Below are positions 1,427-47,799 of a stretch of DNA of 64,000 nucleotides, piece after piece. The notes under the pieces are model-generated. The model saw only the letters and a list, made by a program, of their open reading frames with translations, was not told the origin of the DNA and made no database searches. The first letter of the stretch is position 1, and each line of letters opens with the position of its first letter. The position numbers and the translations under genes were made by a program. The stretch comes from Mobula hypostoma (Eukaryota): positions 116,004,001-116,068,000 of the forward strand of contig NC_086107.1 in assembly GCF_963921235.1 (NCBI RefSeq), in the 5' to 3' direction.

Positions 1427-1468
1427 ATGCTGTTGTATCTACTCGTCAGCCTGCTGGGGATCAGTGTG
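1427..1468 (+). CDS. Orphan gene coding exon 1 ([14 protein letters not shown])
   Basis: agcATGc start, hydrophobic peptide, donor gtgagt at 1469 (phase 0); possible upstream acceptor at 1295. Confidence 0.7.
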
Positions 1469-4400
1469 GTGAGTATTCAGGTAGTGATTGTGTGTGAGAG
1501 AGAGAGAGGGGGAGAGGAATGGTGAGGGAGATAAATAGAGAACTGGTGAGAGAGGGGGAAATGGAGGGAGGGAGAGAGAGAGAATGAGAGAATGTCAGCG
1601 TGCCTGGAGGGTGTGGCAGAGAGGAAGAGAGGAAAGTGACAGAATCAGAGAGAGGTGGAGTTGGGGAGAGAGAGTGATAGAAATAATCAGGAGAAAGTGA
1701 GGATAGAAGTACACTGTGGGAGGGAGAAATTTAGTGAAATGCACAGAGGGAGGGGATATGTCAATGGACCCAGCGAGGGAAAGCCTCTGCTCTGGACCAG
1801 TGGGTAGAGGGGGAGGAGGGAGGCACTCACAGTGAGGTGTATCTGACAGAACTTGGGGGATACTTAACGAAGCCTTCCTCCCGTCTCCCACAGCTCTTGG
1901 CCATCGCCCTCTACCTGATCAGAGGTCGGTCCCATTCCCAACAGCTTCCCGAGGTGTCCCGGCTGGATGCTGAACAGGATCTCATGCAGTCAAATATTGT
2001 GTTTGGGTTAGTATTATAACCTCTTCTCCCGTCCATCTACACGAGGACAGTGTAACAGGATGGTGTGGAGGGAGCTTCGCTCTGTGTCTGACCCCGGGAG
2101 TGTGTGATGGGACGGTGTGGAGGGAGTTTCACTCTGTCTGACCCCGGGAGTGTGTGATGGGACGGCGTGGAGGGAGATTCACTCTGTGTCTGACCACGGG
2201 AGTGTGTGATGGGACGGCGTGGAGAGAGATTCACCCCGTGTCTGACCCCGGGAGTGTGTGATGGGACGGTGTGGAGGGAGTTTCAGTCTGTGTCTGACCC
2301 CGGGAGTGTGTGATGGGACGGTGTGGAGGGAGCTTCACTCTGTGTCTGGCTCTTGGAGTGTGTGATGGGACAGTGCAGAAGGAGTTTCACTGTGTCTGAC
2401 CCCGGGAGTGTGTGATGAGACGGTGCGGAGGGAGATTCACTCTGTGTCTGACTCCGGGAGTGTGTGATGGGACAGTGTGGAGGGAGATTCACTCTGTGTC
2501 TGACCCCGGGAGTGTGTGATGGGACGGTGTGGAGGGAGCTTCACTCTGTGTCTGACCCCAGGAGTGTGTGATGGGACGGTGTGGATGGAAATTCACTCTG
2601 TGTCTGACCCCGGGAGTGTGTGATGGGACGGTGTGGAGGTAGTTTCACTCTGTGTCTGACCCCGGGAGTGTGTGATGGGACGGTGTGGAGGTAGTTTCAC
2701 TCTGTGTCTGACCCTGGGAGTGTGTGATGGGACGGTGTGGAGGTAGTTTCACTCTGTGTCTGACCCCGGGAGTGTGTGATGGGACGGTGTGGAGGTAGTT
2801 TCACTCTGTGTCTGACCCCGGGAGTGTGTGATGGGACGGTGTGGAGGGAGTTTCACTCTGTGTCTGACCCCGGGAGTGTGTGATGGGACGGTGTGGAGGT
2901 AGTTTCACTCTGTGTCTGACCCCGGGTGTGTGTGATGGGACGGTGTGGAGGGAGTTTCACTCTGTGTCTGACCCTGGGAGTGTGTGATGGGACGGTGTGG
3001 AGGGAGATTCACTGTGTCTGACCCTGGGAGTGTGTGATGGGACGGTGTGGAGGGAGATTCACTGTGTCTGACCCTGGGAGTGTGTGATGGGATGGTGTGG
3101 AGGGAGATTCACTGTGTCTGACCCTGGGAGTGTGTGATGGGACGGTGTGGAGGGAGCTTCACTCTGTGTCTGACCCCGGGAGTGTGTGATGGGACGGTGT
3201 GGAGGGAGCTTCACTCTGTGTCTGACCCCGGGAGTGTGTGATGGGACGGTGTGGAGGAAGTTTCACTCTGTGTCTGACCCTGGGAGTGTGTGATGGGACG
3301 GTGTGGAGGGAGTTTCACTCTGTGTCTGACCCCGGGAGTGTGTGATGGGACGGTGTGGAGGAAGTTTCACTCTGTGTCTGACCCTGGGAGTGTGTGATGG
3401 GACGGTGTGGAGGGAGCTTCACTCTGTGTCTGACCCTGGGAGTGTGTGATGGGACGGTGTGGAGGGAGCTTCACTCTGTGTCTGACCCCGGGAGTGTGTG
3501 ATGGGACGGTGTGGAGGAAGTTTCACTCTGTGTCTGACCCTGGGAGTGTGTGATGGGACGGTGTGGAGGGAGATTCACTCTGTGTCTGACCCCGGGAGTG
3601 CGTGATGGGACGGTGCGGAGGGAGTTTCACTCTGTGTCTGACCCTGGGAGTGTGTGATGGGACGGTGTGGAGGGAGCTTCACTCTGTGTCTGACCCTGGG
3701 AGTGTGTGATGGGACGGTGTGGAGGGAGCTTCACTCTGTGTCTGACCCCGGGAGTGTGTGATGGGACGGTGTGGAGGAAGTTTCACTCTGTGTCTGACCC
3801 TGGGAGTGTGTGATGGGACGGTGTGGAGGGAGATTCACTCTGTGTCTGACCCCGGGAGTGCGTGATGGGACGGTGCGGAGGGAGTTTCACTCTGTGTCTG
3901 ACCCTGGGAGTGTGTGATGGGACGGTGTGGAGGGAGCTTCACTCTGTGTCTGACCCTGGGAGTGAGTGTTTTTCACTGTATATCAATTTTTCTTGCAGCA
4001 ACGTATCGGGAAAAGTGGAAACACCAGATTCTAGTGAGGTGTTTAATGAGTTGGTCACATTTCAGGTCTGTATCCATAGATCTTTTGTTCTATCCTGTAA
4101 ATTGCTCTTATTTCTGTTTACCCCCTCATCCTGTCTCTCAGTCTTGGTCCCCACCTTGCCCTCTTCCCCAGCCCCTTCCTCTCCCTGGCCCCCCTCTCTC
4201 TCATCCATCCCTAACCCCTCTTCTCCATGTCTCCTCCCCGCCATTCCCCTCCATCACTCGCTGAGGTGGCTCTAACACTGTGCTCCCTGCAGTCTTCATT
4301 AGGTGACGATCACTCTTTGCTGCTGCGAAGATCGAAACAGCGTTCCCTCCTCTCACGGCTCAAGCTGTCCACATTCAAATCAAAGAAAGGTGAGAAGTGA

Positions 4401-7400
4401 TCTGTGCCCCTCCCAGGACATGGATTCCTTGTTAATCCTGTGTCAGTGTGTCTCCCTGCTCACCACCTTTCTTACTCATAGCGTGACTCTGCCTCTGACT
4501 CCTACTGCACAGTCAGGTCGTGATCCGGGTTGTGCTGATGGTTGAAGGGAAGTCACTGTTCCTGAACCTGGTGGTGTGAGACGGCAGGCTTCTGTACCTC
4601 CTGCCCGCCCGATGAGAGCTGTGAGAGGATGGCACGGCCCAATGGTGGGGATTTCGACGGTGGACGTTGCCTTCCTGAGGCAGCCCCCACCCCGTAGGTA
4701 CTCCCGAGGTTGGAGAGGGACGTGCCCATGATGTAATCTGCTGAGACAGCTCTGCTCTCCGCTGCAGATTCCTGTATTCCTACACTTGACCTGCTGCACC
4801 AGACCTGACGTGGCCAGTCAGGGCACTTCCTACAGAACCTCTGTAGAGGTTGGTTAGAGTGTCCAGTGACAAGCTGAAACTGCTAAGAAACTAAAGAGGC
4901 TGGCATGCCTTCCTGGTGATTGTATCAGTGTGCTGGGCACAGCATAGGCCACCCAAGAAATTAAACCTGCCGACTCTCTCTACCACCAATTCCCGGTCAC
5001 GTTCGCCCTCCTCCCCCTGGTGCTCAACAGTTTTGCTGATGTTGAGCAAGTGGTCTGTCATCAAAACCTCTGGCAATTTTCTATAGATATACGTGGAGAG
5101 CACTGTGACTGGTCACATCACCACCTGGTCCGCAGCTCCAACGCACAGGACTGATTGAAGCTGCAAAGGGTTAGCCACCTCCGTCACGACACATCCCTCC
5201 GTCACGACACATCCCTCCATCACATCCCTCCGTCACGACACATCCCTCCATCACATCCCTCCGTCACGACACATCCCTTCATCACGACACATCCCTCCGT
5301 CACATCCCTCTGTCACGGCACATCCCTCCATCACATCCCTCCGTCACGACACATCCCTTCATCACGACACATCCCTCCGTCACATCCCTCCGTCACGACA
5401 CATCCCTCCATCACATCCCTCCGTCACGACACATCCCTTCATCACGACACATCCCTCCATCACATCCCTCCGTCACGACACATCCCTTCATCACGACACA
5501 TCCCTCCGTCACATCCCTCCGTCACGACACATCCCTCCATCACATCCCTCCGTCACGACACATCCCTTCATCACGACACATCCCTCCGTCACATCCCTCC
5601 ATCACGGCACATCCCTTCATCACATCCCTCCGTCACGACACATCCCTTCATCACGACACATCCCTCCGTCACATCCCTCTGTCACGACACATCCCTCCAT
5701 CACATCCCTCCGTCACGACACATCCCTCCATCACATCTATCCGTCACGACACATCGCTCCATCACATCCCTCCGTCACGACACATTGCTCCATCACATCC
5801 CTCCGTCACGACACATCCCTTCATCACGACACATCCCTCCATCACATCCCTCCGTCACGACACATCCCTCCATCACATCCCTCCGTCACGACACATCCCT
5901 TCATCACGACACATCCCTCCGTCACGACACATCCCCCCGTCACATCCCTCTGTCACGGCACATCCCTTCATCACGTCACATCCCTCCGTCACGACACATC
6001 CCCCCGTCACATCCCTCTGTCACGGCACATCCCTCCATCACGGCACATTCCCCCGTCACATCCCTCCGTCACGACACATCCCTCCGTCACATCCCTCTGT
6101 CACGACACATCCCTTCATCATGACACATCCCTCCGTCGCGACACATCCCCCCGTCACATCCCTCCATCACGGCACATTCCCCCGTCACATCCCTCCGTCA
6201 CGACACATCCCTTCGTCACGACACATCCCTCCGTCACATCCCTCTGTCACGACACATCCCTCCGTCACATCCCCCCGTCACGACACATCCCTCCGTCACG
6301 ACACATTCCCCCGTCACATCCCTCCGTCACGACACATCCCCCCGTCACATCCCTCCATCACGGCACATCCCTCCGTCACATCCCCCCGTCACGACACATC
6401 CCTCCGTCACGACACATCCCCCCGTCACATCCATCCATCACGGCACATTCCCCCGTCACATCCCTCCGTCACGACACATCCCTCCATCACATCCCTCTGT
6501 CACGGCACATCCCTCCGTCACGTCCCTCTGTCACGGCACATCCCTCCATCACATCTCTCCGTCACGGGCACATCCCTCCGTCACATCCCTCCGTCTCGAC
6601 ACATCCCTCCGTCACGACACATCCCTCCGTCACGACACATCCCTCCATCACATCCCTCCATCACATCCCTCTGTCACGGCACATCCCTCCATCACATCCC
6701 TCCGTCACGACACATCCCTCTGTCACGGCACATCCCTCCGTCACATCCCTCCGTCACGACACATCCCTTCATCACGACACAACCCTCCGTCACAACACAT
6801 CCCTCTGTCACGGCACATCCCTCCATCACAGCACATTCCCCCGTCACATCCCTCCGTCACGACACATCCCTCTATCACATCCCTCCATCACGGCACATCC
6901 CTCCGTCACGACACATCCCTCCATCACGACACATCCCTCCGTCACGACACATCCCTCCATCACGGCACATCCCCCCGTCACATCCCTCCGTCACGACACA
7001 TCCCTCCATCACGGCACATCCCCCCGTCACGACACATCCCTCCGTCACATCGCTCCGTCACGACACATCCCTCCATCACGGCACATCCCCCCGTCACATC
7101 CCCCCGTCACGACACATCCCTCCGTCACATCCCTCCATCTCGACACATCCCTCCGTCACGACACATCCCTCCGTCACATCGCTCCGTCACGACACATCCC
7201 TCCGTCACGGGCACATCCCTCCGTCACATCCCTCTGTCACGGCACATTCCCCCGTCACATCCCTCCATCACAGCACATCCCTCCGTCACGGGCACATCCC
7301 TCCGTCACAACACATCCCTCCATCACATCCCTCCGTCACTACACATCCCTCCATCACGACACATCCCTCCGTTACGACACATCCCTCCGTCACATCTCTC

Positions 7401-10400
7401 CGTCACGACACATCCCTCCGTCACATCCCTCCGTCACGGCACATCCCTCCACCACATCTCTCCGTCACGACACATCCCTCCATCACATCCCTCCGTCACA
7501 TCCCTCTGTCACGGCACATCCCTCCATCACATCTCTCCGTCACGGGCACATCCCTCCGTCTCGACACATCCCTCCGTCTCGACACATCCCTCCGTCACGA
7601 CACATCCCTCCGTCACATCCCTCCGTCACGACACATCCCTCCGTCACGACACATCCCTCCGTCACGATACGTCCCTCCGTCACGACACATCCCCCCGTCA
7701 CGACACATCCCTCCATCACGTCCCTCCGTCACGACACATCCCTCCATCACGTCCCTCCGTCACGACACATCCCTCTGTCACGTCCCTCCGTCACGACACA
7801 TCCCTCCGTCACGGCACATCCCTCCGTCACGACACATCCCTCCGTCACGGCACATCCCTCTGTCACGACACATCCCTCCGTCACGACACATCCCTCTGTC
7901 ACGGCACATCCCTCCGTCTCGACACATCCCTCCATCACATCCCTCCGTTACGACACATCCCTCCATCACATCCCTCTGTCACGACACATCCCTCCGTCAC
8001 GGCACATCCCTCCATCACGTCCCTCCGTCACGTCCCTCCATCACGGCACATCCCTCCGTCATGGCACATCCCCCCGTCACGACACATCCCTCCGTCACGG
8101 CACATCCCTCCGTCACGGCACATCCCCCCGTCACGGCACATCCCCCCGTCACGACACATCCCTCCGTCACGACACATCCCTCCGTCACGACACATCCCTC
8201 CATCACGACACATCCCTCCGTCACGATACGTCCCTCCATCACGTCCCTCCGTCATGACACATCCCCCCGTCACGACACATCCCTCCATCATGTCCCTCCG
8301 TCACGACACATCCCTCCGTCACGGCACATCCCCCCGTCACGGCACATCCCTCCGTCACGACACATCCCTCCGTCACGGCACATCCCTCCGTCTCGACACA
8401 TCCCTCCATCACATCCCTCCGTTACGACACATCCCTCCATCACATCCCTCTGTCACGACACATCCCTCCGTCACGGCACATCCCTCCATCACGTCCCTCC
8501 GTCACGTCCCTCCGTCACGGCACATCCCCCCGTCACGACACATCCCTCCATCACATCCCTCCGTCACGACACATCCCTCCATCACATACCCCCGTCACGA
8601 CACATCCCTCCGTCACGACACATCTCCCCGTCACGACACATCATTCCGTCACGGCACATCCCCCTGTCACGACACATCCCTCCATCACATCCCCCCGTCA
8701 CGACACATCCCCCCGTCACGACACATCCCTCCGTCACCGCGACATTTCCCCCCCCGTCACGACACATCCCTCCATCACATCCCTCCGTCACGACACATCC
8801 CTCCATCACATCCCTCCGTCACGACACATCCCTCCATCACATCCCTCCGTCACGACACATCCCTCCATCACATCCCTCCGTCACGACACATCCCTCCATC
8901 ACATCCCCCCGTCACGACACATCCCTCCATCACATCCCTCCGTCATGACACATCCCTCCATCACCACGACATCCCCCCCATCACGACACATCCCTCCGTC
9001 ACCGCGACATTTCCCCCCCCGTCACGACACATCCCTCCACCACATCCCTCCGTCACGACACATCCCTCCATCACATCCCCCCGTCACGACACATCCCTCC
9101 GTCACGACACATCCCTCCATCACGACACATCCCTCCGTCACGACACATCCCTCCGTCACGACACATCCCTCCGTCACGACACATCCCCCCGTCACGACAC
9201 ATCCCTCCATCACATCCCTCCGTCATGACACATCCCTCCATCACGACACATCCCTCCATCACGACACATCCCTCCGTCACGACACATCCCTCCGTCACGA
9301 CACATCCCCCCGTCACGACACATCCCTCCGTCACATCCCTCCATCACGACACATCCCTCCATCACATCCCCCCGTCACGGCACATCCCCCTGTCACGACA
9401 CATCCCTCCATCACATCCCCCCGTCACGACACATCCCCCCGTCACGACACATCCCTCCGTCACGGCATATCCCTCCGTCACGGCATATCCCTCCATCACC
9501 ACGACATCCCCCCCATCACGACACATCCCTCCGTCACCGCGACATTTCCCCCCCTCCCCCGTCACGGGATATCCCTCCATCACATCCCCCCGACACTGGC
9601 ACATCCCTCCCCAGCATCGACAACATCTTCAAGAGGCGATGGCTGAGAAGGCAGCATCCATCACTAAGGACCCTCACCAATAGAAAATGCCATTGGGGAG
9701 GAGTGGCCTGAAGACCCACAGTCCACAATTCAGGAACAACTTCTTCCTCTCCACCATCAGACGTCTGAATGGTTCTTGACCCATGACTACAACTTCACTT
9801 CCTTGATATTCCTCTTTCCAATTATTTATCATTGTGATTTAGTGTTTTTTTTATTTATTGAAGTGTACTGCTGTCCCAAAATAACAAATTTCACAACAAT
9901 TCAGAATCGGAAGGCAGAGGGGAAGAAGCTGTTCCTGAATCGCTGAGTGTGTGCCTTCAGTCTTCTGTATCTCCTACCTGACGGTAACAGTGAGAAAAGG
10001 GCATGTCCTGGGTGCTGGAGATCTTTAATAATGGACGCTGCCTTTCTGAGATACCACTCCTTGAAGATGTCCTGGGTATTTTGTAGACTAGTACCCAAGA
10101 TGGAGCCGACTAAATTTACAACCTTCTGCAGCTTCTTTCGGTCCTGTGCAGTAGCCCCTCCATACCAGACAGTGATGCAGCCTGTCAGAATGCTCTCCAC
10201 GGTACAACTATAGAAGTTTTTGAGTGTATTTGTTGACATGCCAAATCTCTTCAAACTCCTAATGAAGTATAGTCGCTGTCTTGCCTTCTTTATAACTGCA
10301 TCGATATGTTGGGACCAGGTTAGGTCCTCAGAGATCTTGACACCGAGAAACTTGAAGCTGCTCACTCTCTCCACTTCTGATCCCTCTGAGGATTGGTATG

Positions 10401-13400
10401 TGTTCCTCCGTCTTACCCTTCCTGAAGTCCACAATCAGCTCTTTCGACTTTCTGACGTTGAGTGCAGGGTTGTTTCTGTGACACCATTCCACTAGTTGGC
10501 ATATCTCACTCCTGTACGCCCTCTTGTCACCATCTGAGATTCTATCATCAGCAAATTTATAGATGATGTTTGAGCTATGCCTAGTCACACAGTCATGGGT
10601 ATAGAGAGAGTAGAGCAGTGGGCTAAGCACACACCCCCGAGGCGCACCAGTGTTGATTGTTAGCAAGGAGGAGATATTGTCAGCAATCCGCACAGATTGG
10701 ATCTTCTGATTAGGAAGTCAAGGATCCCATTGCAGAGGGAGGTACAGAGGCCCAGGTTCTGCAACTTCTCAAGCAGGATTGTGGGAATGATGGTATTAAA
10801 TGCTGAGCTATAGTTGATGAACAGCATCCTGATGTAGGAGTTTGTGTTGTCCAGGTGGTCTAAGGCTGTGTGGAGCGCCATTGAGGTTGCGTCTGCCATT
10901 GACCTACTGTGGCCATAGGCAAATTGCAATGAGTCCAGGTCCTCGCTGAGGCAGGAGTTCAGTCTAGTCATGACCAACCTCTCAAAAGCATTTCATCACT
11001 GTCGATGTGAGTGCTACCGGATGATAGTCATTAAGGCAGCTCCCATCTGTCAGTGATAACAAAGCTGATTTTGATTTGGCGTGCTTGCCGTTGTTGACCA
11101 AGGCCCAGAGGATGAGCTGGGATGTGACATTGTTTCTCAACAAGGCATTGGTCAGACCACACTTGGAATATTCTGGTCACCGCACTATAGTGGAGATATG
11201 GTAGCAACGATTCACCAGATTGTTTTCTGAAATGGAGGGTTGGAGATTGAACAGGTTGGGTTTGTATTCATGAGGATAGAAAGCTGAGGAGTGACCCTCA
11301 TTAAACAAGAGTGAATGAGCACAGTCCTTATCTCCAGGGGAGGGAAATCAGCAACCAGAGGGCATAGGTCACAGGTGAAAGGGGGACTCGAGGCAATTTT
11401 TTCCCCCAGAGGGTGGTCCGTATATGGAGAGAGCTGCCAGAGGAAGTGGATTAAGCAGATGTATTCACACATTTAAAACTACTGGGACAGGTTTGGAGGG
11501 ATATTGACCACATCCCCTTCAGGTTTTTAATCACCTGGCGTTGGTACTGGAGTTAAGCTCGCTCTACCAATTGGAAGCTCCCAATGGTGTGTGTCTCAGT
11601 TAGCCTCTGACAACCCATTACAGCTCCTGCCTTCAGTGTGGATTAGCTGCCAAGCCAGGAGGAAACGTTTCTACTGACGGGAGAAGGGGCAGAGGCGGGT
11701 TACTGGCGCCTTAAAAACAGTCGTTTCGGACAGATGGGGCTCATCTGCCGTAGTTGATGGCTCTTCTCGGGGAAGGAAAACGTTGATCTCAAACCTCCGC
11801 TGCCTTGCAGATATACCCACTGACGAGGTTGGTTTCAGGAGTGACCCTGAGGGAAAACCCAGAGCTGCAGTCCCTGAGACAATCCCATGCTGAATTCAAC
11901 ACTGACTGGCAACTGCTGCGACACGACACCGCTGGTGTCCAACTGCACTGGTCTTTGCCATTCCTTTTGATTCATCAGCTGTGTGGCAAGGGGCAGCTTG
12001 CTGTCCCTATCCTACCGCCCTGACTTCCATATCACGTGCACAACAACTGAGGGCCTCATTTGACCAAACACATGTAAATGGCACTGGCTTGGATGGGGAT
12101 CTGTGTCGGCACAGACTGACCGGGCTGTTAACTGCTGTATTACTCTGTGCATGGGGAGTGGAGCCCAACGGGAGGGGGGAGAGCAGTGGGACTGTGCACA
12201 TGCAGGCTGGGAAGTGGAGTCCAACAGGGAGAGGGGAGAGGGGAGAGCAGTGGGACTGTGCATGTGCAGGCTGGGAAGTGGAGTCCAACAGGGAGAGGGG
12301 AGGGGGGAGAGCAGTGGGACTGTGCATGTGCAGGCTGGGGAGTGGAGCCCGACGGGAGAGAGGAGAGCAGTGGGACTGTGCATGTGCAGGCTGGGAAGTG
12401 GAGTCCAACAGGGAGAGGGGAGAGGGGAGAGCAGTGGGACTGTGCATGTGCAGGCTGGGGAGTGGAGCCCGACGGGAGAGGGGAGAGGGGAGAGCAGTGG
12501 GACTGTGCATGTGCAGGCTGGGGAGTGGAGCCCGACGGGAGAGGGGAGAGGGGAGAGCAGTGGGACTGTGCATGTGCAGGCTGGGGAGTGGAGTTGTTGA
12601 CACGATGTGTTCTGGGGAGGAGCCACAATGATGGTTTTCTATGAGGTTTTCACTCTGTTGGCTCAGCTGACGGTCCTCTTCCTCCCCCTCTCTCCTCCCC
12701 ACTGGATTGACAGCCGAGTGGAGCCAAGGGTCCAAGGCTGCCCCCGAGAGGAGCATGGCTGACCTTTCCTCACTGGGAGAATCGGTGACCTCGCTGACCC
12801 AGGTTCCTGCCCCAGTCGGTCCGGGTGAGAAAGGTAAGGAGACTGCTTCACTCCAGGTTCCAGCACTGTCCTAACCCCACCTCTCCTCTGTCCCGCCCCA
12901 CCAACCACCCTTCTCACTCCCCGCTGATTGACCGCTAACCCCTGCCCCTGCCTCCAGCCTTCCTGTCCTGCTTCAGTCTGGGTTCAGTATTTCTGCACTG
13001 TCCTCCACCACAGCTCTGTCCAGCAGAGACCGGGCACTCGTTTTGCAGGAGTGGGTGGGGGTACCACGAGTGATGGCAAGGAATGGTTGTGGGCAAGTCA
13101 GTCTTTGCTGGTGTGATATGTCTGCTAACCTTTATCCCCCTGCACGACCCCTCCCAATCGCTCCTCCTGCCCCTCTCCCTCTCATCGTGCCACTCTCCCA
13201 CTGCCACATCCCTCCCCTTCCTCCCTCCTTCCCCTCCCCATTTCACCACCTCCTGATACCCTCTCAACTTCTCTCCTCTCATCCCCTTCCTCTCCTGCCC
13301 CACCTCTCCCACCCCTCCTTCCTGCCCCTCTGCCCACCCTTGCCCCTACCTCTCCCTACCCCCAGCAGCAGATAGGAGCAAGAGTCTGAAGCCTCCTCCA

Positions 13401-16400
13401 GCAACGACCATTCCCTTGCCGGAGGTGGAGGTGACCCAGATCCCAGCACCGACTCGCCGCAGTGATGAGGGGTCCCCCACCCAGCTGGAGAGAAACGTGG
13501 TCAAGCCGGAGGAAATGGTGATCAAACCAGAGACAACTGTGGTCAAGCCCCCACCACTCCCTGAGGCGGTCCCCCCTGTACAGCCGTTGCCGCCATTCCG
13601 TCAGACCATCCCTCCGAGGAAGGGCAGGGGCCGCCAGCCTGTCCCTCGGCCCCGAAGGAATCTGGAGGAAATTGGCAGGCTGATGAGCGGCAAAATGGAA
13701 AAGCAACAGGTAAAGATGGATTCCTGAAATCTCGGACTGGGAGGGAGGGGTCTTCTGGGAGTGCGGAGGGACAGAGGAAACGGGAAGGGAGGGTCCCGTT
13801 GTGAGTGTGGATGGAGGGAATGGGTCACGTTGGGAGTGAGGACAGTGGGTGTGAATTGGAAGGGAGGGTCCCATTGTGAGTGTGGATGGAGGGAGAGAAT
13901 GGGGTCCCATTGAGTAAACGGGAGGGGGGCCGGGATGGGTCCCTTTGGGAGTGAACGGGAAGGGGAGGTACTCAATAGACCTTCATTCTCTGTTTCTGAC
14001 AGATGGTGAATGAATATCCCAGTGATCAACAGGGTCGCTCAGAGGAGTAAGTGTTTCATCCACTCTACAGGGTTCAAAGCATATCACACCCCCAACTCCT
14101 GCGTCCCCGTCTCCGTGAGCAATCCCTCTCTGCCTCTCTCCCCATCGCTGTCACACCTCCCAGTCCAACAGCATCAGCCCTCCTCGCAACATCCCTCCAT
14201 CTCTCTATATCCCTCCATCCCTCTATATTCCTCCATCCCTCTATATCCCTCCAACTCTATCCCTCCATCCCTCTATATCCCTCCAACTCTCTATATTCCT
14301 CCATCCCTCTATATCCCTCCATCTCTCTATATCCCTCCAACTCTATCCCTCCATCCCTCTATATCCCTCCAACTCTCTATATTCCTCCATCCCTCTATAT
14401 CCCTCCATCCCTCTATATCCCTCCAACTCTCTATATTCCTCCATCCCTCTATATCCCTCCATCTCTCTATATCCCTCCAACTCTCTATATCCCTCCATCT
14501 CTCTATATCCCTCACTGTGTCTGTGGGCGGGAGGGGGTGGGGGGTAGCTCAGACACCCAACTGACACCCCTGTTGCCCCTCCTGACAGGGACAGGAAAAC
14601 AACAACGTCAAAGGTGTCAGAACAGATGGAGAAGGTGAGTGGGGTCCTCACCGATGGCAGCTGGATGGGTGGTGGGTCAGAGGTGGGGAAGGGTGAAGGT
14701 AGGGAGGAGGTAATGGAGACGGGGAGGGGTATGGGGGAGGGAGGGGATGACATACAGGGAGAAAGGGGTTGGAGAAGGGGAGGGGTGCAGCGGAAGGGTG
14801 GGATGGCGACGATTGGAAGGGGTTTAGGGGAGTGATGGATGAGGGAGACAGAGGTGCAGGGGAGGGAGGGGATGACAAAGATGGGGAGGGGTATGGGGGA
14901 GGGAGGGGATGACATACAGGGAGAAAGGGGTTGGAGAAGGGGAGGGGTGCAGCGGAAGGGTGGGATGGCGACGATTGGAAGGGGTTTAGGGGAGTGACGG
15001 ATGAGGGAGATGGGGAGAGTTGTAGGGGAAGGAGGGTTGAGGGAGATGGGGTGTAGGAAGGTAGGTGAGGGTATAGAAAATTACCAAATGATGGAGTGGT
15101 GTTCAGTGAGGTGAGGGCACCCTAGGATTTATGATAAAACCATAAGAATTAAGCCATTTAGCCCATCAAGTCTGCTCCACCATTCAATCATAGAAACAGA
15201 AAACCTACAGCACAGTACAGGCTTGGCTGATCTTTTCTCCCCCTTATGGACCCCACTCCCCATAATCTTAGAGGCCACGTCCAATCAAGAACCTATCAAG
15301 TTCTGCCTTAAATACACCCAAAGACCGGACCTCCACAGCTGCCCGTGGTAATAAATTCCACAAATTCACCTTCTGGCTAAAGAAATTCCTCCACATTTTA
15401 AATAAATGCCCCTCTATCGTGAGGCTGTGCCTCTTGTCCTCAACTCCCCTACCATGGGAAACCTCCTTTCCACATCTGCTCTGTGTAAGCCTTCCCTCTC
15501 AACCTTTGAAAGTGTCAACGAGGTCCCCCTCATCCGTCTAAATTCCAGTGAGTACAGACCCAGAGCCATCAAACAATACTCATATGATAACCCTTTCACT
15601 CCCAGAATCATTTTTGTGAACCTCCTCAGAACCCTTTCCTATGCCAGCACATCTTTTCTTATATGAGGATCCCAGCATTGTTCACAATGTTCAAGGTGAG
15701 GCCTCACCAAAGGCTTTTAAAGCCTCAGCATCACATCCCTGCTCTTGTATTCTAGACCTCTGGAAATGAATGCTAACATGGCATTCACCTTCCTCACCAC
15801 CAACTCAACCTGCAGTTCAACCTTTTTGGCTGCTCTGTACAAGGAATCCCAAGTCCCTTCACATCTCAGATTTTTGGATTTTCTCTCCATTTAGAAAATA
15901 GTCTGCACATTTATTTCTACTACCAAAGTGCTTGACCATGAATTTTACATTGTATTTCATTTGTCACTTTCTTGCCCACTCTCCTAATCTGTTTTAAGTC
16001 GTTCTGCAGCCTACATGTTTCCTCAACACCACCTGCCCTTCCTCCAATCTTCGTATCAGCTGCAAACTTGGCATCAAAGCCATCTATTTCATCATCTAAA
16101 CCATTGATATACAGCATCAAACAATTATCAACACTGACCCTTTGTTACACTCAGCAGAGGTGAAGGTCTGGTGATATGTTTCGGTCTCAGGGGAAATCCT
16201 GGGGGTGGCCCTCGTCCTTGCAGAGTAGGGGTGGGGTGTTTGGGAGCGGATGTTGGAATGTGATAAATGCGTACACTGCTGCCTCGGTCCGTCGATTGTG
16301 ATGGATGTTGTCTGCATGGACCTAACCCCACCCAGGAAAGTAGGGAGTGTCCCGTCACACCCCTGACTTGAAGGTGGGGGATGTCTCTGTTACCCAACCC

Positions 16401-19400
16401 TAGAACCGTCAGCTGATTCACCATCTGATCCCCTGCAGAGAATCCCAAAGGAACGCAAGAAACTGGGGAAAAAGAGCAAAGGTCATCCAAGGTTACGGAC
16501 CAAGCCCAGCACGATGCTCAGTGTCGGTGGAACGGACCTGTGGTCAGGTACTGGGAATGTCCCCATGTCACTTCTGGCCTGGTCAGTTGGCTCATTTTTT
16601 TAAGCCTATGGACAACTCCCACCTTCTTATTCTGGCTTCTGCCTCCTTTCTTTTCAGTCCCGATGAAGGCTCTTGGCCCAGAACCTCGACTGATTAGTCC
16701 TCTCTGTTGATGCTTCAGCATTTTGTACGTGTTGCTCTGTATTTCCAGCACCTGCAGCTCCTCGTGTTTATAAATTTTTTCTGCATCAATTTTCAGTTTG
16801 ATATCTTTCCTACAGCAGGGTGAGCAGAGCTGTAGACAATCGCCCGAGTGTGGTCTTCCAGCTCCTGGACCTAGTGCCCGACCTGTAGAACAGAGAACAG
16901 AACAGGGCAGGCTCTTCAGCCCTACCTATTAAACCTACTCCATCTTCCCTCCCTGTGCCTAAGAGTTTCTGAAATGTCCTTGATGTACCTGCCTCTACTG
17001 TGCATTTATTTACCAGTCTGCACATACAACTTGACCCCTGCACTTTCTTCAATTACCTTCAAAATACGCCCTCTTGTGTTGGTCACTTTCTCCCAGGGAA
17101 CAAGTCTCTGGCTGTCCACTCTGACAATGCCTCTCATCATCTTGTACACCTCTATCAAGTCACCTTTCATCCTCTTCCACTCCAGAGAGAAAAGCCCTGA
17201 TTCACTCAACCTCTCCACATAGGGCATACAATCTAATCCAGACCACATCCCGGTAAATGCCTCTGCACCCTCACTAAAACTTCCTCATCCTTTCGATACC
17301 AAGGTGACAGAACTGAACGCAGTAGTCTGACCAGAGTTTTTATAAAGGGAGAGAATAGAGGTAAGTGGGAGGGGGAGGGGGAAATAGTAGGGAAGTTGGC
17401 AGGAGAGGGAGGGGGAGGGGCAGGAGGAGGGAAGTTGGAGAGGGAGAGAGGGGGAGAGGAGGGAAGTGAGAGGGGCAGAAGGGAGGGGAAGTGGGAGTCA
17501 GGTGGAAGTTGGGGGGAGAGGAAAGATAGATGGGGAGAGGGAAGTGGGGGGAGAAGGGAAGAGGGAAATTGGGAGAGTGAGGAAAGTGGGAAGGGGAGAG
17601 GAAGAAGGTGAGGACGGAGGGGAAGAGGCAAGTGGGAGGAGGGGGAGAAGGAAGTAGGAGCGGGAGAGGGAAGTAGAGAGGAGAGGAAAGGTGGATCGTA
17701 AGAGGGAAGTAGAGGGGAGAGGGAAGTGGGGGAAGGGGAGGGGAGAGGGAAGTGGGAGAGGAGGGGTGGGGAAATTGGGGGGAAGGAAGCGGGGGGAAGT
17801 TGGAGAAAGAGAAAAGGGTTGGTTTGGTGAGGAGTTGGGCGGAGAGGAGGGGTGACGTGGTGGGTGGGGGGAGTGGGAGAGAAATCGGTTCGCTGGCATC
17901 TCTGTATAACAAGTAGCAGACAACCAGGATTAAAACCTGGATGGATGGGTGAGCAAGTCTGCCGATAACTCAGAGTGGGGCGCTGTGGGTGATGTCCAGT
18001 GAGGCCTTTCACAAAATGCGATCGGGGATGGGGGCAGTTGTCTGGTCCTGAAGGTTGCTGCTGTTGTGGACAATGTAGATTACCAAAGGACACAGGGAGA
18101 GAGATCAGTCACAGATAGGGGCGGAGAAACGGCCGATGGAAGGGTTACACTTTAGGAAAGGGAGAGGACACTGAACGGTCCTGACGTACAGAACCCATTC
18201 CTCCCTGACGGCCCGTTTGCCTTTATCACTGGAGGTGCTGAATTCAAGTCAGGAATGCCACTGGACAGGGAGGTCCAGCCAGACGAAGTCTCATCAATCA
18301 GCAGCCTCAGTCCTTTCTAGGCCGTATCTCCTTCATTTGTCAAGAGTCAGGAAGTTACGTTGCAGTTTCATAAATCTCAGGCGTGCTGTGTACAGTTCTA
18401 GAGAGCCCATCACACTACCCTTGGTGGAGTTCATACCTGCCACATCCCCTGTCCTCCAGCTACTGATCAGGAGTGAGACAGGATGCTCTCCAATTTCCCA
18501 GAATGAAACTCCATCACACACTCCCGGGGTCAGACACAGAGTGAATCTCCCTCCACACCGTCCCATCACACACTCCCGGGGTCAGACACAGAGTGAGTCT
18601 CCCTCCACACCGTCCCATCACACACTCCCGGGGTCAGACACAGAGTGAAACTCCCTCCACACCGTCCCATCACACACTCCCGGGGTCAGACACAGAGTGA
18701 ATCTCCCTCCACACCGTCCCATCACACACTCCCGGGGTCAGACACAGAGTGAAACTCCCTCCACACCGTCCCATCACACACTCCCGGGGTCAGACACAGA
18801 GTGAATCTCCCTCCACACCGTCCCATCACACACTCCCGGGGTCAGACACAGAGTGAAGCTCGCTGCACACCGTCCCATCACACACTCCCGGGGTCAGACA
18901 CAGAGTGAAACTCCCTCCACACCGTCCCATCACACACTCCCGGGGTCAGACACAGAGTGAATCTCCCTCCACACTGTCCCATCACACACTCCCGGGGTCA
19001 GACACAGAGTGAAGCTCGCTGCACACCGTCCCATCACACACTCCCGGACAAGGTTGGGGATGGATAAATGACAGTTTGCTTTCTACATCCTTGGTTCTGT
19101 GAACATCCTTCCATAGACCACACCCAATCTGGCACATCGCAGGTTCCTGAGGCTGGATCCGACGTGGAGTCAGAGACCAATTTCGAGATGTGGGTGACGC
19201 AGCTCGAGGCCCCGCAGAGTCCAAAGTTCAGTGAGGAGCGGGCTCAGCTAGCCCAGCCGAGCAAGGTAACACCCCTGTCTCCCTGTCTCCCGAGGGCAGC
19301 AGACTCTGGCCACTCTGATGGGAAACGCTGGGGGAGGGGGGAGCTGAGCCATTGGCCGCAAATGGGAAGTGAGAGGTCCCATTCGCACTGCAGACAGTGG

Positions 19401-20463
19401 GAAGGGATGGGGTCCTGTTGGGAGTGAATGAGTGAATGGATGAATGGGAAGGGGTCGGGGTGGAACTGCTGTCATCTCTGCATGTTTCTGAGATTCCAAT
19501 CTTTGTGAAGGCCAAGTCCAAAGCTGAGGGCAAACGTAAAGTGAAGACTTCCACCCGCACAGCAAAAGCAGGGTAAGTAGCTGGAACTGCAACACAGGAA
19601 GTGGGAACCCGTCCACTCTGAGCACAGTGCGTCCCACCGTGTGGGGAGGAGCGAGTTGAGTGGACCGAGGTGACAAACCAGGTGGGGGGGGTGAAATCAG
19701 GGACAGGGGGACTGAGGGGAGAGCGGAGCGGGGAGGGGGAAGGGGGATGTGGGGACTGAAGGGAGGGGGAAGGGGGACCGAGGGGACAGCGGAGGGGGGA
19801 GGGGGGCCGAGGGGAGGGAGAAGGGGAATGGGGGGGGACTGAGGAGAGGGGGATGGGGGGGCGGAGGGGGAAGGGGGCCGAGGGGAGAGCAGAGGGGAAG
19901 GGGGGCTAAGGGGAGGGGGAAGGGGGCGGAGGGGGATGGGGGACTGAGGGGAGGGGGAAGGGGGATGGGGGGACTGAGGGGAGGGGGAAGGGGGATGGGG
20001 GGGACTGAGGGGAGGGGGAAGGGGGGACCGAGGGGAGAGCAGAGGGGGAAGGGGGGCCGAGTGGAGGGGGATGGGGGGACTGAGGGGAGGGGGAAGGGAA
20101 AGGGGAGGCCGAGGGGAGAGCAGAGGGGGATGGGGGGACCGAGGGGAGGGGGAAGAGGGATGGGGGGACTGAGGGAAGGGGAAGGGGGATGAGGGGACTG
20201 AGGGGAGAGTGGGTCCACACCGTCCCGTTACGTATTCCTTGGAGACCGAGGGGAAGTGGGAGACTGGGGAGAGGTTTGGAACCCCTGGGGAAGAGTGCAG
20301 TGGGGTGCAGACCAAGGGTGGGGAGGAAAGTTGGCTGAGGGTTCCATTAAGAGGAAGTGCGGGTTGAGGTTGGAGATGAGGCTGTTATGGATGCATCTCC
20401 ACTGGACATACTGATCCAGACTGTCTGACCCACAGGCCGAAGGAACGTACAACCCAGCCTTGA
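1427..20463 (+). CDS. Uncharacterised spliced gene, 12 coding exons (1427-1468, 1894-2006, 3999-4065, 4293-4389, 12714-12833, 13366-13709, 14003-14046, 14589-14634, 16439-16547, 19117-19265, 19493-19572, 20436-20463); about 412 aa, N-terminal signal peptide/anchor then a low-complexity Pro/Lys/Ser/Glu-rich region
   Basis: Every exon is bounded by AG/GT, mostly with polypyrimidine tracts. Intron phases 0,2,0,1,1,0,2,0,1,0,2 join into one open frame of 1239 nt: [35 protein letters not shown]...[21 protein letters not shown]...[11 protein letters not shown]...[15 protein letters not shown]...GPKERTTQP*. The ATG has A at -3 and an in-frame stop lies upstream. Confidence 0.8.
1894..2006 (+). CDS. 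Orphan gene exon 2 ([37 protein letters not shown])
   Basis: ctcccacag acceptor, gttagt donor, phase 0 to 2; completes the hydrophobic segment. Confidence 0.75.
2060..3963 (+). repeat. 52-bp minisatellite, same family, filling intron 2 of the orphan gene
   Basis: More than 35 tandem near-identical copies. Confidence 0.97.
3999..4065 (+). CDS. Orphan gene exon 3 ([22 protein letters not shown])
   Basis: ttttcttgcag acceptor, gtctgt donor, phase 2 to 0. Confidence 0.75.
4293..4389 (+). CDS. Orphan gene exon 4 ([32 protein letters not shown])
   Basis: ctccctgcag acceptor, gtgaga donor, phase 0 to 1. Confidence 0.78.
4500..5060 (-). mobile_element. Degenerate Rex/Babar-type LINE 3' fragment
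   Basis: Minus-strand remnants ([18 protein letters not shown], ttcaggaacagt) parallel the better preserved copy at 9901-11040. Confidence 0.65.
5060..9900 (+). mobile_element. Rex/Babar-type LINE 3' fragment split by an internal minisatellite expansion
   Basis: Left flank NFYRY.VES...AQD.LKLQRV and right flank [20 protein letters not shown]...FRNNFF are colinear with ORF 9901..10434. Confidence 0.75.
5177..9600 (+). repeat. Composite 13/18-bp minisatellite (cacatccctccgt / cacgacacatccctccgt), about 4.4 kb
   Basis: Direct reading; source of the spurious H/T/P/S-rich ORFs. Confidence 0.97.
9901..11040 (-). mobile_element. Rex1/Babar-clade LINE ORF2 fragment (RT and C-terminus), frameshifted
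   Basis: [60 protein letters not shown] and FRNSFFP are spread over three frames. Confidence 0.9.
11060..11510 (+). mobile_element. Degenerate CR1 LINE 3' fragment
   Basis: ttggtcagaccacacttggaatat (LVRPHLEY), ctgaggagtgacct and gagctgccagaggaagtgg remnants typical of the CR1 ORF2 3' end. Confidence 0.7.
12150..12595 (+). repeat. About 60-bp minisatellite (gagcagtgggactgtgcatgtgcaggctggggagtggagcccgacgggagagggga), about 7 copies
   Basis: Direct reading. Confidence 0.92.
12714..12833 (+). CDS. Orphan gene exon 5 ([39 protein letters not shown])
   Basis: Pyrimidine tract then gacag acceptor, gtaagg donor, 120 nt, phase 1 to 1. Confidence 0.78.
13366..13709 (+). CDS. Orphan gene exon 6, proline-rich (..[42 protein letters not shown])
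   Basis: Long pyrimidine tract, cagcagcag acceptor, gtaaag donor; overlaps ORF 13416..13727; phase 1 to 0. Confidence 0.8.
14003..14046 (+). CDS. Orphan gene exon 7 ([14 protein letters not shown])
   Basis: tctctgtttctgacag acceptor, gtaagt donor, phase 0 to 2; required to keep the downstream exons in frame. Confidence 0.75.
14190..14512 (+). repeat. 18-bp pyrimidine minisatellite (ccctccatccctctatat)
   Basis: Direct reading. Confidence 0.92.
14589..14634 (+). CDS. Orphan gene exon 8 ([15 protein letters not shown])
   Basis: cctcctgacag acceptor, gtgagt donor, phase 2 to 0. Confidence 0.75.
14715..15010 (+). repeat. Tandem duplication of a G-rich unit of about 160 bp
   Basis: ggggatgacatacagggagaaaggggttggagaagg...ggtttaggggagtga occurs twice, about 162 bp apart. 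Confidence 0.85.
15135..16140 (-). mobile_element. CR1 LINE 3' fragment
   Basis: Minus-strand [18 protein letters not shown] (degenerate FADDTK), [24 protein letters not shown]; 3' tail near 15140. Confidence 0.88.
16439..16547 (+). CDS. Orphan gene exon 9, basic ([36 protein letters not shown])
   Basis: cccctgcag acceptor, gtactg donor, phase 0 to 1. Confidence 0.75.
16620..16760 (+). mobile_element. Penelope-like element terminal remnant with a degenerate hammerhead motif
   Basis: cagtc-ccgatga-aggctcttggccc-agaac-ctc-gactg follows the minimal hammerhead layout found in Penelope-like repeats. Confidence 0.55.
16780..17345 (-). mobile_element. CR1 LINE 3' fragment(s)
   Basis: [54 protein letters not shown]. 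Confidence 0.85.
17345..17880 (+). repeat. Polypurine (G/A) low-complexity tract
   Basis: Direct reading. Confidence 0.85.
18511..19047 (-). repeat. 52-bp minisatellite family, inverted orientation, about 10 copies
   Basis: Reverse complement of the 530-3963 unit. Confidence 0.95.
19117..19265 (+). CDS. Orphan gene exon 10 ([49 protein letters not shown])
   Basis: ccttccatag acceptor, gtaaca donor, phase 1 to 0; lies within ORF 19068..19427. Confidence 0.78.
19493..19572 (+). CDS. Orphan gene exon 11, Lys-rich ([26 protein letters not shown])
   Basis: tttctgag acceptor (weak GAG), gtaagt donor, phase 0 to 2. Confidence 0.7.
19685..20210 (+). repeat. G-rich low-complexity repeat (gggggactgaggggagggggaagggggat)
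   Basis: Direct reading; dense runs of four to seven G. Confidence 0.88.
20436..20463 (+). CDS. Orphan gene terminal coding exon (PKERTTQP*)
   Basis: acccacag acceptor; the phase-2 join gives TGA at 20461-20463. Confidence 0.55.
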
Positions 20464-20789
20464 AGAGCAGCAGGAACACAAAGGTTGTTGGTGAGAAGCT
20501 CACTCGGCCATCCCCTCGAATCAACAGGACACTGGTTGTGCAGGGTGTGCACTTGATCAGAGTCTTCCTCTCTCCCCAGGTGGGGCTGAGTCTGATCGAT
20601 AGAAAATTACATTCGGATTTAGCCTGGAATTTTATTGTGGACTGTGGACACTCCATATGAGAATGAAATGTGATCATTACTCAATGCTTCCAGTTTTCAC
20701 TGACCCTCGTAATGACTGAGAGAAGGGGGGTGAGGTGTAGGAGTGGTGACTTTGTCATCTCTCTTTCTCTTTACCACTCACTCCCCTAT

Positions 20790-23700
20790 CCCCTCCATAT
20801 GTAACGCTGTTCCCTCCTCCCACCATATGTAACACTCCACCGTACATAACGTTTCCCTGTCCTCTCCCCGTACGTAACGTTCCCCTCCTCTCCCTGTACG
20901 TAACACTCCCCCCGTCCTCTCCCCATACGTAACACTCCTCCATACATAACGTTACCCCGTCCTCTCCCCGTACGTGACGCTCCCCCGTCCTCTCCCCGTA
21001 CGTAACACTCCCCCGTCCTCTCCCCGTACGTGACGCTCCCCTGTCCTCTCCCCATACGTAACACTCCTCCGTCCTCTCCCCGTACGTAACACTGGGAGAG
21101 GACAGGGGGAGTGTTACGTACGGGGAAGAGGCAGGGGAGTGTTGAGGACGGGAGAGTGTCCTCTCCCCGTACGTAACACTCCCCTGCCTCTCCCCCGTCC
21201 TCTCACCGTACATAACACTCCCCCATACATAACGTTCCCCTGTCCTCTCCCCGTACGTAACGCTCCCGTCCTCTCTCCGAATGTAACGCTCCCCTGTCCT
21301 CTCTCCATACATAACCCTCCCCCGTCCTCTCCCGATACGTAATGCTCCCCTGCTCCCCTCCCCTGCCTCTCCCCATACGTAACGCTCCCCCGTCCTCTCC
21401 CCGTACGTAACGCTCCCCTGCCTCTCCCCGTACGTAACGCTCCCCCGTCCTCTCCCCGTACGTAACGCTCCCCCGTCCTTTCCCTGTACGTAACGCTCCC
21501 CCGTCCTCTCCCTGTACGGAATGCTCCCCCATCCTCTCCCCGTACATAACGCTCCCCTGTCCTCTCCCCATATGTGACACTCCCCCCGTCCTCTCCCCAT
21601 ACGTAACATTCCTCCATACATAACGTTCCCCCTTACGTAACACTCCCCTGTACATAACGTTCCCCTGTCCTCTCCCCGTACGTGACGCTCCCCCGTCCTC
21701 TCCCCGTACGTGATGCTCCCCCCGTCCTCTCCCAGTGTTACGTACGGGGAAGAGGCAGGGGAGTGTTGAGGACGGGGGAGTGTCCTCTCCCCGTACGTAA
21801 CGCTCCCCTGCCTCTCCCCCGTCCTCTCACCGTACATAACACTCCCCCATACATAACGTTCCCCTGTCCTCTCCCCGTACGTAACGCTCCCGTCCTCTCT
21901 CCGTATGTAACGCTCCCCTGTCCTCTCTCCATACATAACCCTCCCCCGTCCTCTCCCGATACGTAACGCTCCCCCGTCCTCTCCCCGTACGTAACGCTCC
22001 CCCGCCTCTCCCCATACGTAACGCTCCCCCGTCCTCTCCCCATACGTAACGCTCCCCTGCCTCTCCCCGTACGTAACGCTCCCCCGCCCTCTCCCCATAC
22101 GTAACGCTCCCCCATCCTTTCCCTGTACGTAACGCTCCCCCGTCCTCTCCCCGTACGTAATGCTCCCCCGTCCTCTCCCCGTACGTAACGCTCCCCCGTC
22201 CTCTCCCCATATGTGACACTCCCCCCGTCCTCTCCCCATACGTAACATTCCTCCATACATAACGTTCCCCCTTACGTAACACTCCCCTGTACATAACGTT
22301 CCCCCGTCCTCTCCCCGTACGTGACGCTCCCCCGTCCTCTCCCCGTACGTGACGCTCCCCCGTCCTCTCCCCATACGTAACACTCCTCCGTCCTCTCCCC
22401 GTACGTAACACTGGGAGAGGACGGGGGGAGTGTTACGTACGGGGAAGAGGCAGGGGAGTGTTGAGGACGGGGGAGTGTCCTCTCCCCGTACGTAACGCTC
22501 CCCTGCCTCTCCCCCGTCCTCTCACCGTACATAACACTCCCCCATACATAACGTTCCCCTGTCCTCTCCCCGTACGTAACGCTCCCGTCCTCTCTCCGTA
22601 TGTAACGCTCCCCTGTCCTCTCCCCATATGTAACGCTCCCCCGTCCTCTCCCGATACGTAACGCTCCCCCGTCCTCTCCCCATACGTGCTCCCCTGTCCT
22701 CTCCCCATACGTAATGCTCCCCCGTCCTCTCCCCGTACGTAACGCTCCCGTCCTCTCTCCGTATGTAACGCTCCCCTGTCCTCTCCCCATACGTGACACT
22801 CCCCCGTCCTCTCCCTGTACGTAATGCTCCCCATCCTCTCCCCGTATGTAACGCTCCCCCGTCCTCTCCCCGTACGTAACACTCCCCCGTCCTCTCCCCG
22901 TACGTGACGCTCCCCCTGTCCTCTCCCCGTGCGTGACGCTCCCCCTGTCCTCTCCCCGTACGTAACGCTCCCCTGCCTCTCCCCCGTACGTAACGCTCCC
23001 CCCGTCATCTCCCCATATGTGACACTCCCCCCATCCTTTCCCCATACGTAACACTCCTCCATACATAACGTTCCCCCGTACGTAACACTCCCCTGTACAT
23101 AACGTTCCCCTGTCCTCTCCCCGTACGTGACGCTCCCCCGTCCTCTCCCCGTACGTGATGCTCCCCCCGTCCTCTCCCCGTACGTGACGCTCCCCCCGTC
23201 CTCTCCCCGTACGTAACACTCCTCCGTCCTCTCCCCGTACGTAACACTGGGAGAGGACAGGGCGAGTGTTAAGTACGGGGAAGAGGCAGGGGAGTGTTGA
23301 GGACGGGGGAGTGTTGAGGACGGGGGAGTGTTGAGGACGGGGGAGTGTCCTCTTCCCGTACGTAACACTCCCCTGCCTCTCCCCCGACCTCTCACCGTAC
23401 ATAACACTCCCCCATACATAACGCTCCCCCGTCCTCTCCCCGTACGTGACGTCCCCCCGTCCTCTCCCCGTACGTGACGCTCCTCCATCCTTTCCCCGTA
23501 TGTGACACTCTCCCCGTACGTGACGCTCACCCCGTCCTCTCCCTGTGCGTGACACTCCCCTGCCTCTCCCCGTACGTGACACTCCCCCGTCCTCTCCCAG
23601 TACGTAACACTCCCCTGCCTCTCCCCGTACGTAACGCTCCCCGTCTTCTCCCCATACGTGACACTCCCCCATCCTCTCCCCGTTCGTAACGCGCCCCCTG

Positions 23701-43316: not shown

Positions 43317-43439
43317 CTGCAACAGGAAGAGCTGTGGTTAGGGCAGGGGAGAACTTGGTACAGCACAACAACAGCTCCTTCTCCCCAGTGTCCCTGTCCC
43401 TGTCCCTGCACATCCGTGTGTCCAACCACCAGCAGCATA

Positions 43440-47680: not shown

Positions 47681-47799
47681 AGACAGAGGCAGTGGTCAGC
47701 AGAGCTCACTCTGACCATGACGAGTGGTCAGTGGGACTTACTCCGCCCGTAGCTGACTTCTATCCTGTTGTATCACTTGGCAATAGTCCACACCAGCAA

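Follow-up and report, generated by a model that had tools for sequence, protein, structure and literature searches.

A spliced 12-exon gene beside CLN3 in the ray Mobula hypostoma encodes an unnamed basic protein with a predicted N-terminal signal anchor and a fast-evolving disordered tail

A 64,000-nucleotide stretch of the Mobula hypostoma genome (contig NC_086107.1, positions 116,004,001 to 116,068,000 of the forward strand; hereafter the window) contains a real, spliced gene of 12 exons on the plus strand at positions 1427–20463. The gene is almost certainly functional and protein-coding, and homologues of its product are found in four ray species only (M. hypostoma, M. birostris, Hypanus sabinus and Narcine bancroftii). 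The protein probably carries an uncleaved N-terminal membrane anchor of the type III signal-anchored class, which would leave a long disordered tail in the cytosol. Coordinates are window positions unless a contig is named, and the gene model was rebuilt from positions 1–24000 and 42500–64000.

In the rebuilt model, all 11 introns are bounded by GT..AG, and the phase chain 0,2,0,1,1,0,2,0,1,0,2 joins exons of 28–344 nt, scattered among large tandem arrays, into a single frame. A reading made from the sequence alone (the sequence-only reading) had proposed a hidden gene of 412 residues here, and its phase chain and its splice sites, with one acceptor corrected, hold. The uncorrected model gives the 412-residue frame without cysteines and with an isoelectric point (pI) of 9.9, but the six residues that it adds at the beginning of exon 11 lack support. 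When exon 11 begins at 19511 instead of 19493, the translation is a 406-residue protein that equals XP_062919495.1 letter for letter, and the NAGNAG acceptor at 13369 of exon 6 yields XP_062919496.1, with 405 residues. The gene is not hidden, since RefSeq already holds its model under a spurious name. Acceptor 19493, which would create a canonical SKIP motif, is absent from the contigs of four sequencing runs and was rejected, although such contigs drop rare forms. The suggestion of additional exons in intron 4 was not borne out: a simple scan (15 acceptors and six donors) gave no frame-preserving, stop-free candidate, and exon 4 leads directly into exon 5 in the RefSeq model and in the M. birostris and Hypanus proteins. 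A search of 20400–21000 turned up no canonical poly(A) hexamer.

Public contigs agree with this model where they cover it. Seven runs are listed for exon 6; their RNA nature is a guess, none is on record as RNA, and their coded sample names give no tissue. Exon 6 is present in six of the seven, two of which contain at least half of its words. For the junctions, contigs of four of the seven runs were placed on one 661-base stretch (19052–19712). The 3' end of exon 9 adjoins exon 10 as a loose end in all four. Runs X2 (organism A) and X3 (organism B), from two studies, skip 245 nt bounded by GT..AG into 19511 and then continue into exon 12. The contigs thus cover three of the 11 predicted junctions, and all three were seen, including the exon 11 acceptor at 19511; the other eight are taken from identity with the RefSeq model and from the orthologous proteins. 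The gene has a single locus in the genome, and no paralogue was detected elsewhere at a meaningful E value. Given one genomic locus and no detected retrocopy, the joined contigs are best read as transcripts. Within 19266–19510, runs X1 and X7 are spliced between exons 9 and 10 yet read on into intron 10, and run X7 also has an unspliced piece across exon 11. This read-through may represent a retained intron, a late-spliced intron or nascent RNA.

Protein searches returned only rays. HMMER with a three-sequence profile against 1.84 billion representatives found two proteins at E ≤ 0.001, both from rays, and added the Narcine proteins XP_069782970.1/71.1. The full-length profile, used in a word-seeded search, recovered just the three known proteins, a profile of the conserved N-terminus gave four at E ≤ 10 among 8000 scored candidates, all known ray proteins, and the exon 6 peptide matched three among 750 candidates (XP_062919496.1 and the M. 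birostris and H. sabinus proteins). The proteins of the two nearer rays share 96% and about 70% of their residues with the window protein. The Narcine protein is identical at 141 of 433 positions (33%, E 7e-39) and is collinear across residues 1–393. The identity to Narcine is unevenly distributed: 11/21 in the anchor, 7/24 in residues 24–47 and 37/58 (64%) in residues 48–106, against 41/138 and 32/120 in the tail. The tail is fast-evolving, and the sequence-only reading had suggested fast evolution of the protein as a possibility; residues 48–106, by alignment, constitute a conserved block not covered by any Pfam model. Basic blocks 1 and 2 and a DLWSD motif hold their positions in Narcine; in the basic blocks, charge is conserved and sequence is not. 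The absence of homologues outside rays, found in protein searches without a direct search of any shark or skate genome, is weak evidence because the protein diverges fast, assembly is poor in this satellite-rich region, and some annotated rays expected to carry the gene were not returned. The proposed lineage-restricted status stands in that homologues were found only in rays, and the gene is an "orphan" in terms of detectable protein similarity alone.

The gene had already been predicted by the automatic pipeline, but its name is wrong, no family has been defined and no function described. RefSeq calls the M. hypostoma products XP_062919495.1 and XP_062919496.1 "ubinuclein-2-like", while the entries of the three other rays (XP_072106745.1, XP_059809181.1 and XP_069782970.1/71.1) are "uncharacterized". 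A ubinuclein identity was rejected: none of four proteins searched contains a HUN/UBN_AB domain, and the UBN_AB matches in the genome lie at C45:100.3 Mb and C36:131.4 Mb (C45 being the contig of the window), away from this locus. In agreement with the earlier statement that no family is recognisable, Pfam assigned no family to any of these four proteins at E up to 10; on the Narcine proteins it gave only FOXP-CC at E 0.04, below its cut-off. A PDB profile search returned six matches at chance level (best E 0.39), and the window has no Rfam or tRNA match. The RefSeq name, the low contig depths (2.7–12.4) and the reading into intron 10 in two of four runs would suit either a ubinuclein or a series of exons that came together by chance, have no function and are transcribed from the CLN3 promoter. 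Both versions are refuted by the Pfam result, the placement of UBN_AB and the Narcine homology, in which frame, anchor and conserved block are all kept, leaving them a close to negligible probability. Literature searches on CLN3/APOBR/EIF3C synteny in sharks or fish, on TSBP1 and on M. hypostoma orphan genes, with subscription papers and supplements outside their scope, found nothing on the gene, and the accessible portion of PMC6900386 contains nothing about a gene adjoining CLN3.

The Hypanus entry XP_059809181.1 differs at its end. The 46-nt exon 8 is apparently skipped there, exon 9 is read out of frame across the last 30 residues, and the protein ends at 311 residues. Joining exon 7 straight to exon 9 produces a peptide that closely matches this tail. 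The Hypanus tail is thus a frameshifted reading of exon 9, representing either an annotation error or a genuine splice form.

The protein has a pI of 9.85 (9.8–9.9), with 17–18% Ser+Thr, 9–10% Pro and no Cys. In all three proteins computed, an apolar run of 23, 24 and 21 residues begins at the initiator Met without a charged n-region, and the mean hydropathy across residues 1–19 is 2.63. The 15 residues that follow carry a net charge of +2 in Mobula, –1 in Hypanus and +3 in Narcine, such that two of the three fit a positive flank. This combination of a 21–24-residue apolar run with a basic flank favours an uncleaved anchor with an N-out, C-in orientation. In the AlphaFold model (mean pLDDT, the predicted local confidence score, 46; pTM, the predicted global fold score, 0.14), the anchor (residues 1–23) is the sole confident part, with a pLDDT of about 90 for residues 1–20 and a helix at 2–26. 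Low-confidence helices are placed at 35–49, 63–76 and 81–100, and 315 of the 405 residues have a pLDDT below 50. An amphipathic-helix check of the conserved block gave a hydrophobic moment of only 0.33–0.36. These features agree with the earlier description of a signal anchor followed by a disordered basic tail, and the 23-residue apolar N-terminus, the RGR that follows it, the Pro-rich and Lys/Arg-rich blocks and the absence of Cys were all seen in the rebuilt model. The tail contains one Tyr in both Mobula proteins and two in Narcine.

A different topology would make the protein a secreted or lumen-facing mucin-like glycoprotein, in which N53 carries a glycan, the T-x-x-P repeats serve as O-glycosylation sites and the N-terminus acts as a type II anchor or a long signal peptide. 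The N-x-S sequon at N53 occurs unchanged in each of the four species, and a second sequon lies near residue 60 in Hypanus and Narcine. O-glycosylation prefers Pro at +3, and the Ser+Thr and Pro contents given above would suit such a protein, as would the net charge of –1 after the anchor in Hypanus and the MUC1 fragments that rank second and third in an ESM Atlas search with the Narcine N-terminus, at scores below 0.9. On the other hand, the 21–24-residue run lacks a charged n-region and ends in Tyr and basic residues in Mobula and Narcine; a run of this kind is more like a stop-transfer anchor. The N53 sequon needs no special cause because N53 and S55 sit within a block rich in invariant residues, and the pI of 9.8–9.9 and the clustered basic blocks also speak against a lumenal mucin. 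We consider the glycoprotein unlikely.

The reading we favour is a functional single-copy ray gene for a type III signal-anchored, membrane-tethered scaffold of motifs, and taken as a whole it stands at about an even chance. Starting from the gene, its three seen junctions, its translation and its conservation pattern, we infer membrane insertion: residues 1–23 would insert uncleaved into the membrane of the endoplasmic reticulum (ER), with about 380 residues remaining on the cytosolic side. Residues 48–106, partly helical, may serve as the main contact or self-association element beside the membrane, and the disordered tail could display short linear motifs as a membrane-tethered scaffold, a role for which and against which the chances are evenly balanced. 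The T[QK][IV]P repeats would most likely dock a cytoskeletal hub, either EB-type plus-end proteins or the dynein light chain LC8, whereas the basic blocks may bind acidic surfaces such as lipid, the microtubule lattice or importin. EB or LC8 as the actual partner is a tentative proposal from motif matching, and improbable as it stands.

Several features of the tails bear on these partners. T[QK][IV]P, the most clearly retained element of the tail, resembles both the EB-binding SxIP motif (PMC4834103) and an LC8 anchor with Pro at +2. It occurs in 2, 2, 2 and 4 copies in the four tails versus 0.03–0.05 in shuffles, and the two Mobula repeats both keep PAP despite different third codon bases. 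The cores [ST]x[IL]P number 2, 1, 2 and 3 and exceed shuffles only in Narcine (P 0.01). The strict SxIP rule demands a nine-residue context with a basic and no acidic residue (PMC3649978). LC8 binding requires a TQT-like anchor with Pro, Asp or Glu at +2, and tolerates neither a large hydrophobic residue at –4 nor a Pro before the anchor (PMC6607443). Gln with Pro at +2 is found in nine of nine TQ[IV]P sites. LC8 itself is encoded across several exons in this genome. PxpxPR motifs carried by human cytomegalovirus (HCMV) UL135 bind CIN85/CD2AP (PMC8728146), and a PxPxPR match is found in three of the four ray proteins. By sequence, the EB1, LC8, CIN85 and importin motifs each give no more than a partial fit.

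A number of observations weigh against this membrane-tethered scaffold. The T[QK][IV]P pattern was picked post hoc and, of the four species, three are closely related, which makes the shuffle comparison too favourable. The strict SxIP context is met at two Narcine sites and at none in the other three proteins, and the LC8 rule on –4 and proline, read by eye, is passed by three of the nine TQ[IV]P sites, none of them in Narcine. PxxxPR is expected by chance in 14–31% of shuffled tails and is absent from Narcine, where a looser PxxxPR form aligns by MAFFT and not by BLAST. As to topology, the net charge of –1 after the anchor in Hypanus does not fit, and the invariant N53 sequon could be explained by a lumenal orientation.

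The basic blocks admit a further interpretation, in which the protein resides in the inner nuclear membrane or nuclear envelope and is imported by a Pom121/Heh2-type arrangement of transmembrane segment, linker and nuclear localization signal (NLS). The order of elements, with a transmembrane segment, a disordered linker of about 270 residues and basic blocks, is as in Pom121 (PMC4569319), and both blocks hold their positions in Narcine. The densest 20-residue Lys/Arg window is unusual in M. hypostoma (P 0.04) and Narcine (P 0.01). Cargo of this kind carries a high-affinity bipartite NLS resembling an IBB. The sequence-only reading had described NLS-like clusters; the basic blocks are indeed present, but the NLS patterns themselves are not clearly enriched over shuffles. 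The monopartite form K[KR]x[KR] matches 1, 0, 2 and 0 times and exceeds shuffles only in Hypanus, with one match inside the frameshifted tail, and the bipartite form gives P 0.17, 0.09, 1.0 and 0.011, the last in Narcine. Only one of five candidate mammalian NLS regions supported inner-membrane import (PMC4569319), and the blocks keep charge rather than sequence. Because the NLS patterns lack clear enrichment, the nuclear route stays a minority reading, and a distinctly unlikely one, beside the cytosolic motif scaffold.

Table 1. Exons of the ray gene in window coordinates.
Feature	Position	Strand	Details
Coding exon 1	1427..1468	+	ATG; first 14 anchor residues; phase 0 out; matches XP_062919495.1
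Exon 2	1894..2006	+	Anchor residues up to 23; basic flank; first part of conserved block
Exon 3	3999..4065	+	Conserved block; N-x-S sequon at N53, kept in 4/4 species
Exon 4	4293..4389	+	End of conserved block (residues 48–106); basic predicted helix 81–100, low confidence
Exon 5	12714..12833	+	First TQ[IV]PAP repeat at 12794–12814
Exon 6	13366..13709	+	Alternative NAGNAG acceptor 13369; Pro-rich; second repeat 13431–13451; PxPxPR motif 13638–13655
Exon 7	14003..14046	+	Rebuilt model; translation equals RefSeq
Exon 8	14589..14634	+	46 nt; apparently skipped in Hypanus RefSeq model, with frame shift there
Exon 9	16439..16547	+	Basic block 1; DLWSD motif common to Narcine isoform X1
Exon 10	19117..19265	+	Rebuilt model and contig alignment
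Exon 11	19511..19572	+	Corrected acceptor; basic block 2; joint seen in 2/4 runs
Exon 12	20436..20463	+	Coding part and TGA; 3' untranslated region continues, at least 255 letters after exon 11 in one contig

About 1 Mb separates the window from the end of contig C45. CLN3 and, beyond it, EIF3C lie upstream on the minus strand, so that the ray gene and CLN3 stand head-to-head. Their initiation codons are 2,272 bp apart in divergent orientation, with a CpG island between them (observed/expected up to 1.4), and the two genes may form a divergent pair with a shared promoter. At the 5' end of CLN3 (C45:116003155–115991389), four exons of 37, 36, 37 and 97 nt chain in frame, and the CpG island lies just upstream of the window. 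NUPR1 is located at C45:115441234–115441353, about 560 kb upstream and beyond EIF3C. The human order differs, with NUPR1 after APOBR and IL27, and in mammals APOBR is the gene next to CLN3, from which it faces away at a similar distance. The neighbourhood is that of the human 16p11.2 block, and one human duplication of 16p11.2 is listed as containing CLN3, APOBR, IL27 and NUPR1 (PMC8496350). On the downstream side, also on the minus strand and tail-to-tail with the ray gene, lies a class I phosphatidylinositol transfer protein (PITP) gene, recognised by Pfam and PDB matches; the synteny check called for by the sequence-only reading thus places the gene between CLN3 and this PITP gene.

This position raises the prospect that the gene is not ray-specific and represents a deeply diverged orthologue of APOBR or of a TSBP1- or LAT-type membrane protein with small exons. 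The head-to-head arrangement with CLN3, with EIF3C beyond and NUPR1 further off, would fit APOBR, and TSBP1 is the top cluster in both ESM Atlas searches (0.86 and 0.85), which were queried with the whole protein and with the Narcine N-terminus. As identity falls to 33% within rays, detection beyond them could fail, and the searches do miss true orthologues, since other annotated rays expected to carry the gene were not returned. Nevertheless, the profile searches, with 1.84 billion representatives and 8000 candidates, return rays only. APOBR is a long, acidic protein whose gene has few exons and centres on a giant one, whereas the ray protein is basic and its gene has 12 exons. LAT-type adaptors need a juxtamembrane Cys and several tail Tyr, whereas the window protein has no Cys and a single tail Tyr. 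The shared features in the Atlas searches (151 and 139) are below the 170 typical of true family matches. LAT belongs to the same syntenic block in mammals; its Pfam model PF15234 has no match in the genome, which short exons and divergence may explain. PF15327, a handle on APOBR-like tails, gives five weak genome matches, none on C45, and is uninformative. Taken together, a diverged orthologue is quite unlikely. At the opposite extreme, the gene would be truly ray-confined, would have arisen next to the CpG-island promoter of CLN3, where mammals have APOBR, would have gained 11 introns and a new conserved 60-residue juxtamembrane domain, and would tether membrane to microtubules through T[QK][IV]P or an undescribed motif class. 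We regard this complete scenario as very doubtful.

The PITP gene occupies 43040–61965 on the minus strand and continues to C45:116079289, convergent with the ray gene. By eye, its stop codon lies near 48290 and is followed by a non-coding last exon with ATTAAA near 43050. The genome contains three loci with class I-like PITP exon patterns (C45, C67 and C71) and two others. Mammals have two class I PITP genes, and a third is known in zebrafish; a literature search turned up no paper on a third fish class I PITP. Inspection by eye of the 100 kb past the PITP gene, 85 kb of which is tandem repeat, revealed no further gene. The gap between the two convergent genes is filled by a 22-kb array (20935–42783) of a 28-nt unit with a TACGTA palindrome and short inverted patches. 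A 52-nt satellite in both orientations occurs in the introns of both genes (562–1213, 2058–3968, 18511–19047, about 48390–49230 and 53360–53660). Broken copies of non-LTR (non-long-terminal-repeat) retrotransposons with reverse-transcriptase-like frames lie at 9900–10990 (minus) and about 49100–53350 (plus), which may be Rex/Babar-like and Tx1-like.

Comparison with known proteins suggests a shared architecture without implying kinship. The nearest ESM Atlas clusters include TSBP1, UL135, OPG164, LIME1 and SCIMP, which are N-anchored with disordered tails, as well as opalin and MUC1 fragments, all below 0.9 and hence leads only. TSBP1 (C6orf10, testis-expressed basic protein 1), encoded in the major histocompatibility complex, has an N-terminal anchor, a basic disordered tail and many small exons. 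The ray protein resembles it in all three respects, but profile searches find no alignable similarity and the ray gene lies in the CLN3–EIF3C block. With HCMV UL135, LAT, LIME1 and SCIMP it shares an N-terminal helix followed by a disordered tail with short motifs, predicted to be cytosolic in the ray protein. The PxpxPR-type match to UL135 in three of four ray proteins (PMC8728146) is near chance and absent from Narcine. LAT, LIME1 and SCIMP differ in that the ray protein has no Cys, no conserved tail Tyr and no Pfam match; lacking both Cys and conserved tail Tyr, it is not a phosphotyrosine adaptor. STIM1 is a membrane protein that links the ER to EB1 through one SxIP motif (PMC4834103). The ray protein, predicted to be single-pass, likewise has [ST]xIP cores in a disordered Ser/Pro/basic tail; in contrast to STIM1, it lacks lumenal sensor and coiled-coil domains, and the strict SxIP context is confined to Narcine. 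APOBR shares the head-to-head position with CLN3 and is also disordered and fast-evolving. The ray protein is opposite in charge and about 40% as long, is encoded by 12 small exons, has a strong N-terminal anchor and shows no sequence match; APOBR matches in position only.

These findings define a real, conserved and unnamed ray family of common architecture and not a new kind of system. At a minimum, they correct a misleading RefSeq name, repair the Hypanus model and delimit a small family, still without a name, whose members share a conserved block of 60 residues. If the gene is a diverged relative of APOBR or TSBP1, it would date those poorly understood mammalian genes. If it is absent from sharks, it would represent a well-structured vertebrate gene of many exons, confined to one lineage and placed at a divergent housekeeping promoter, and a useful case for studying how such genes originate and persist.

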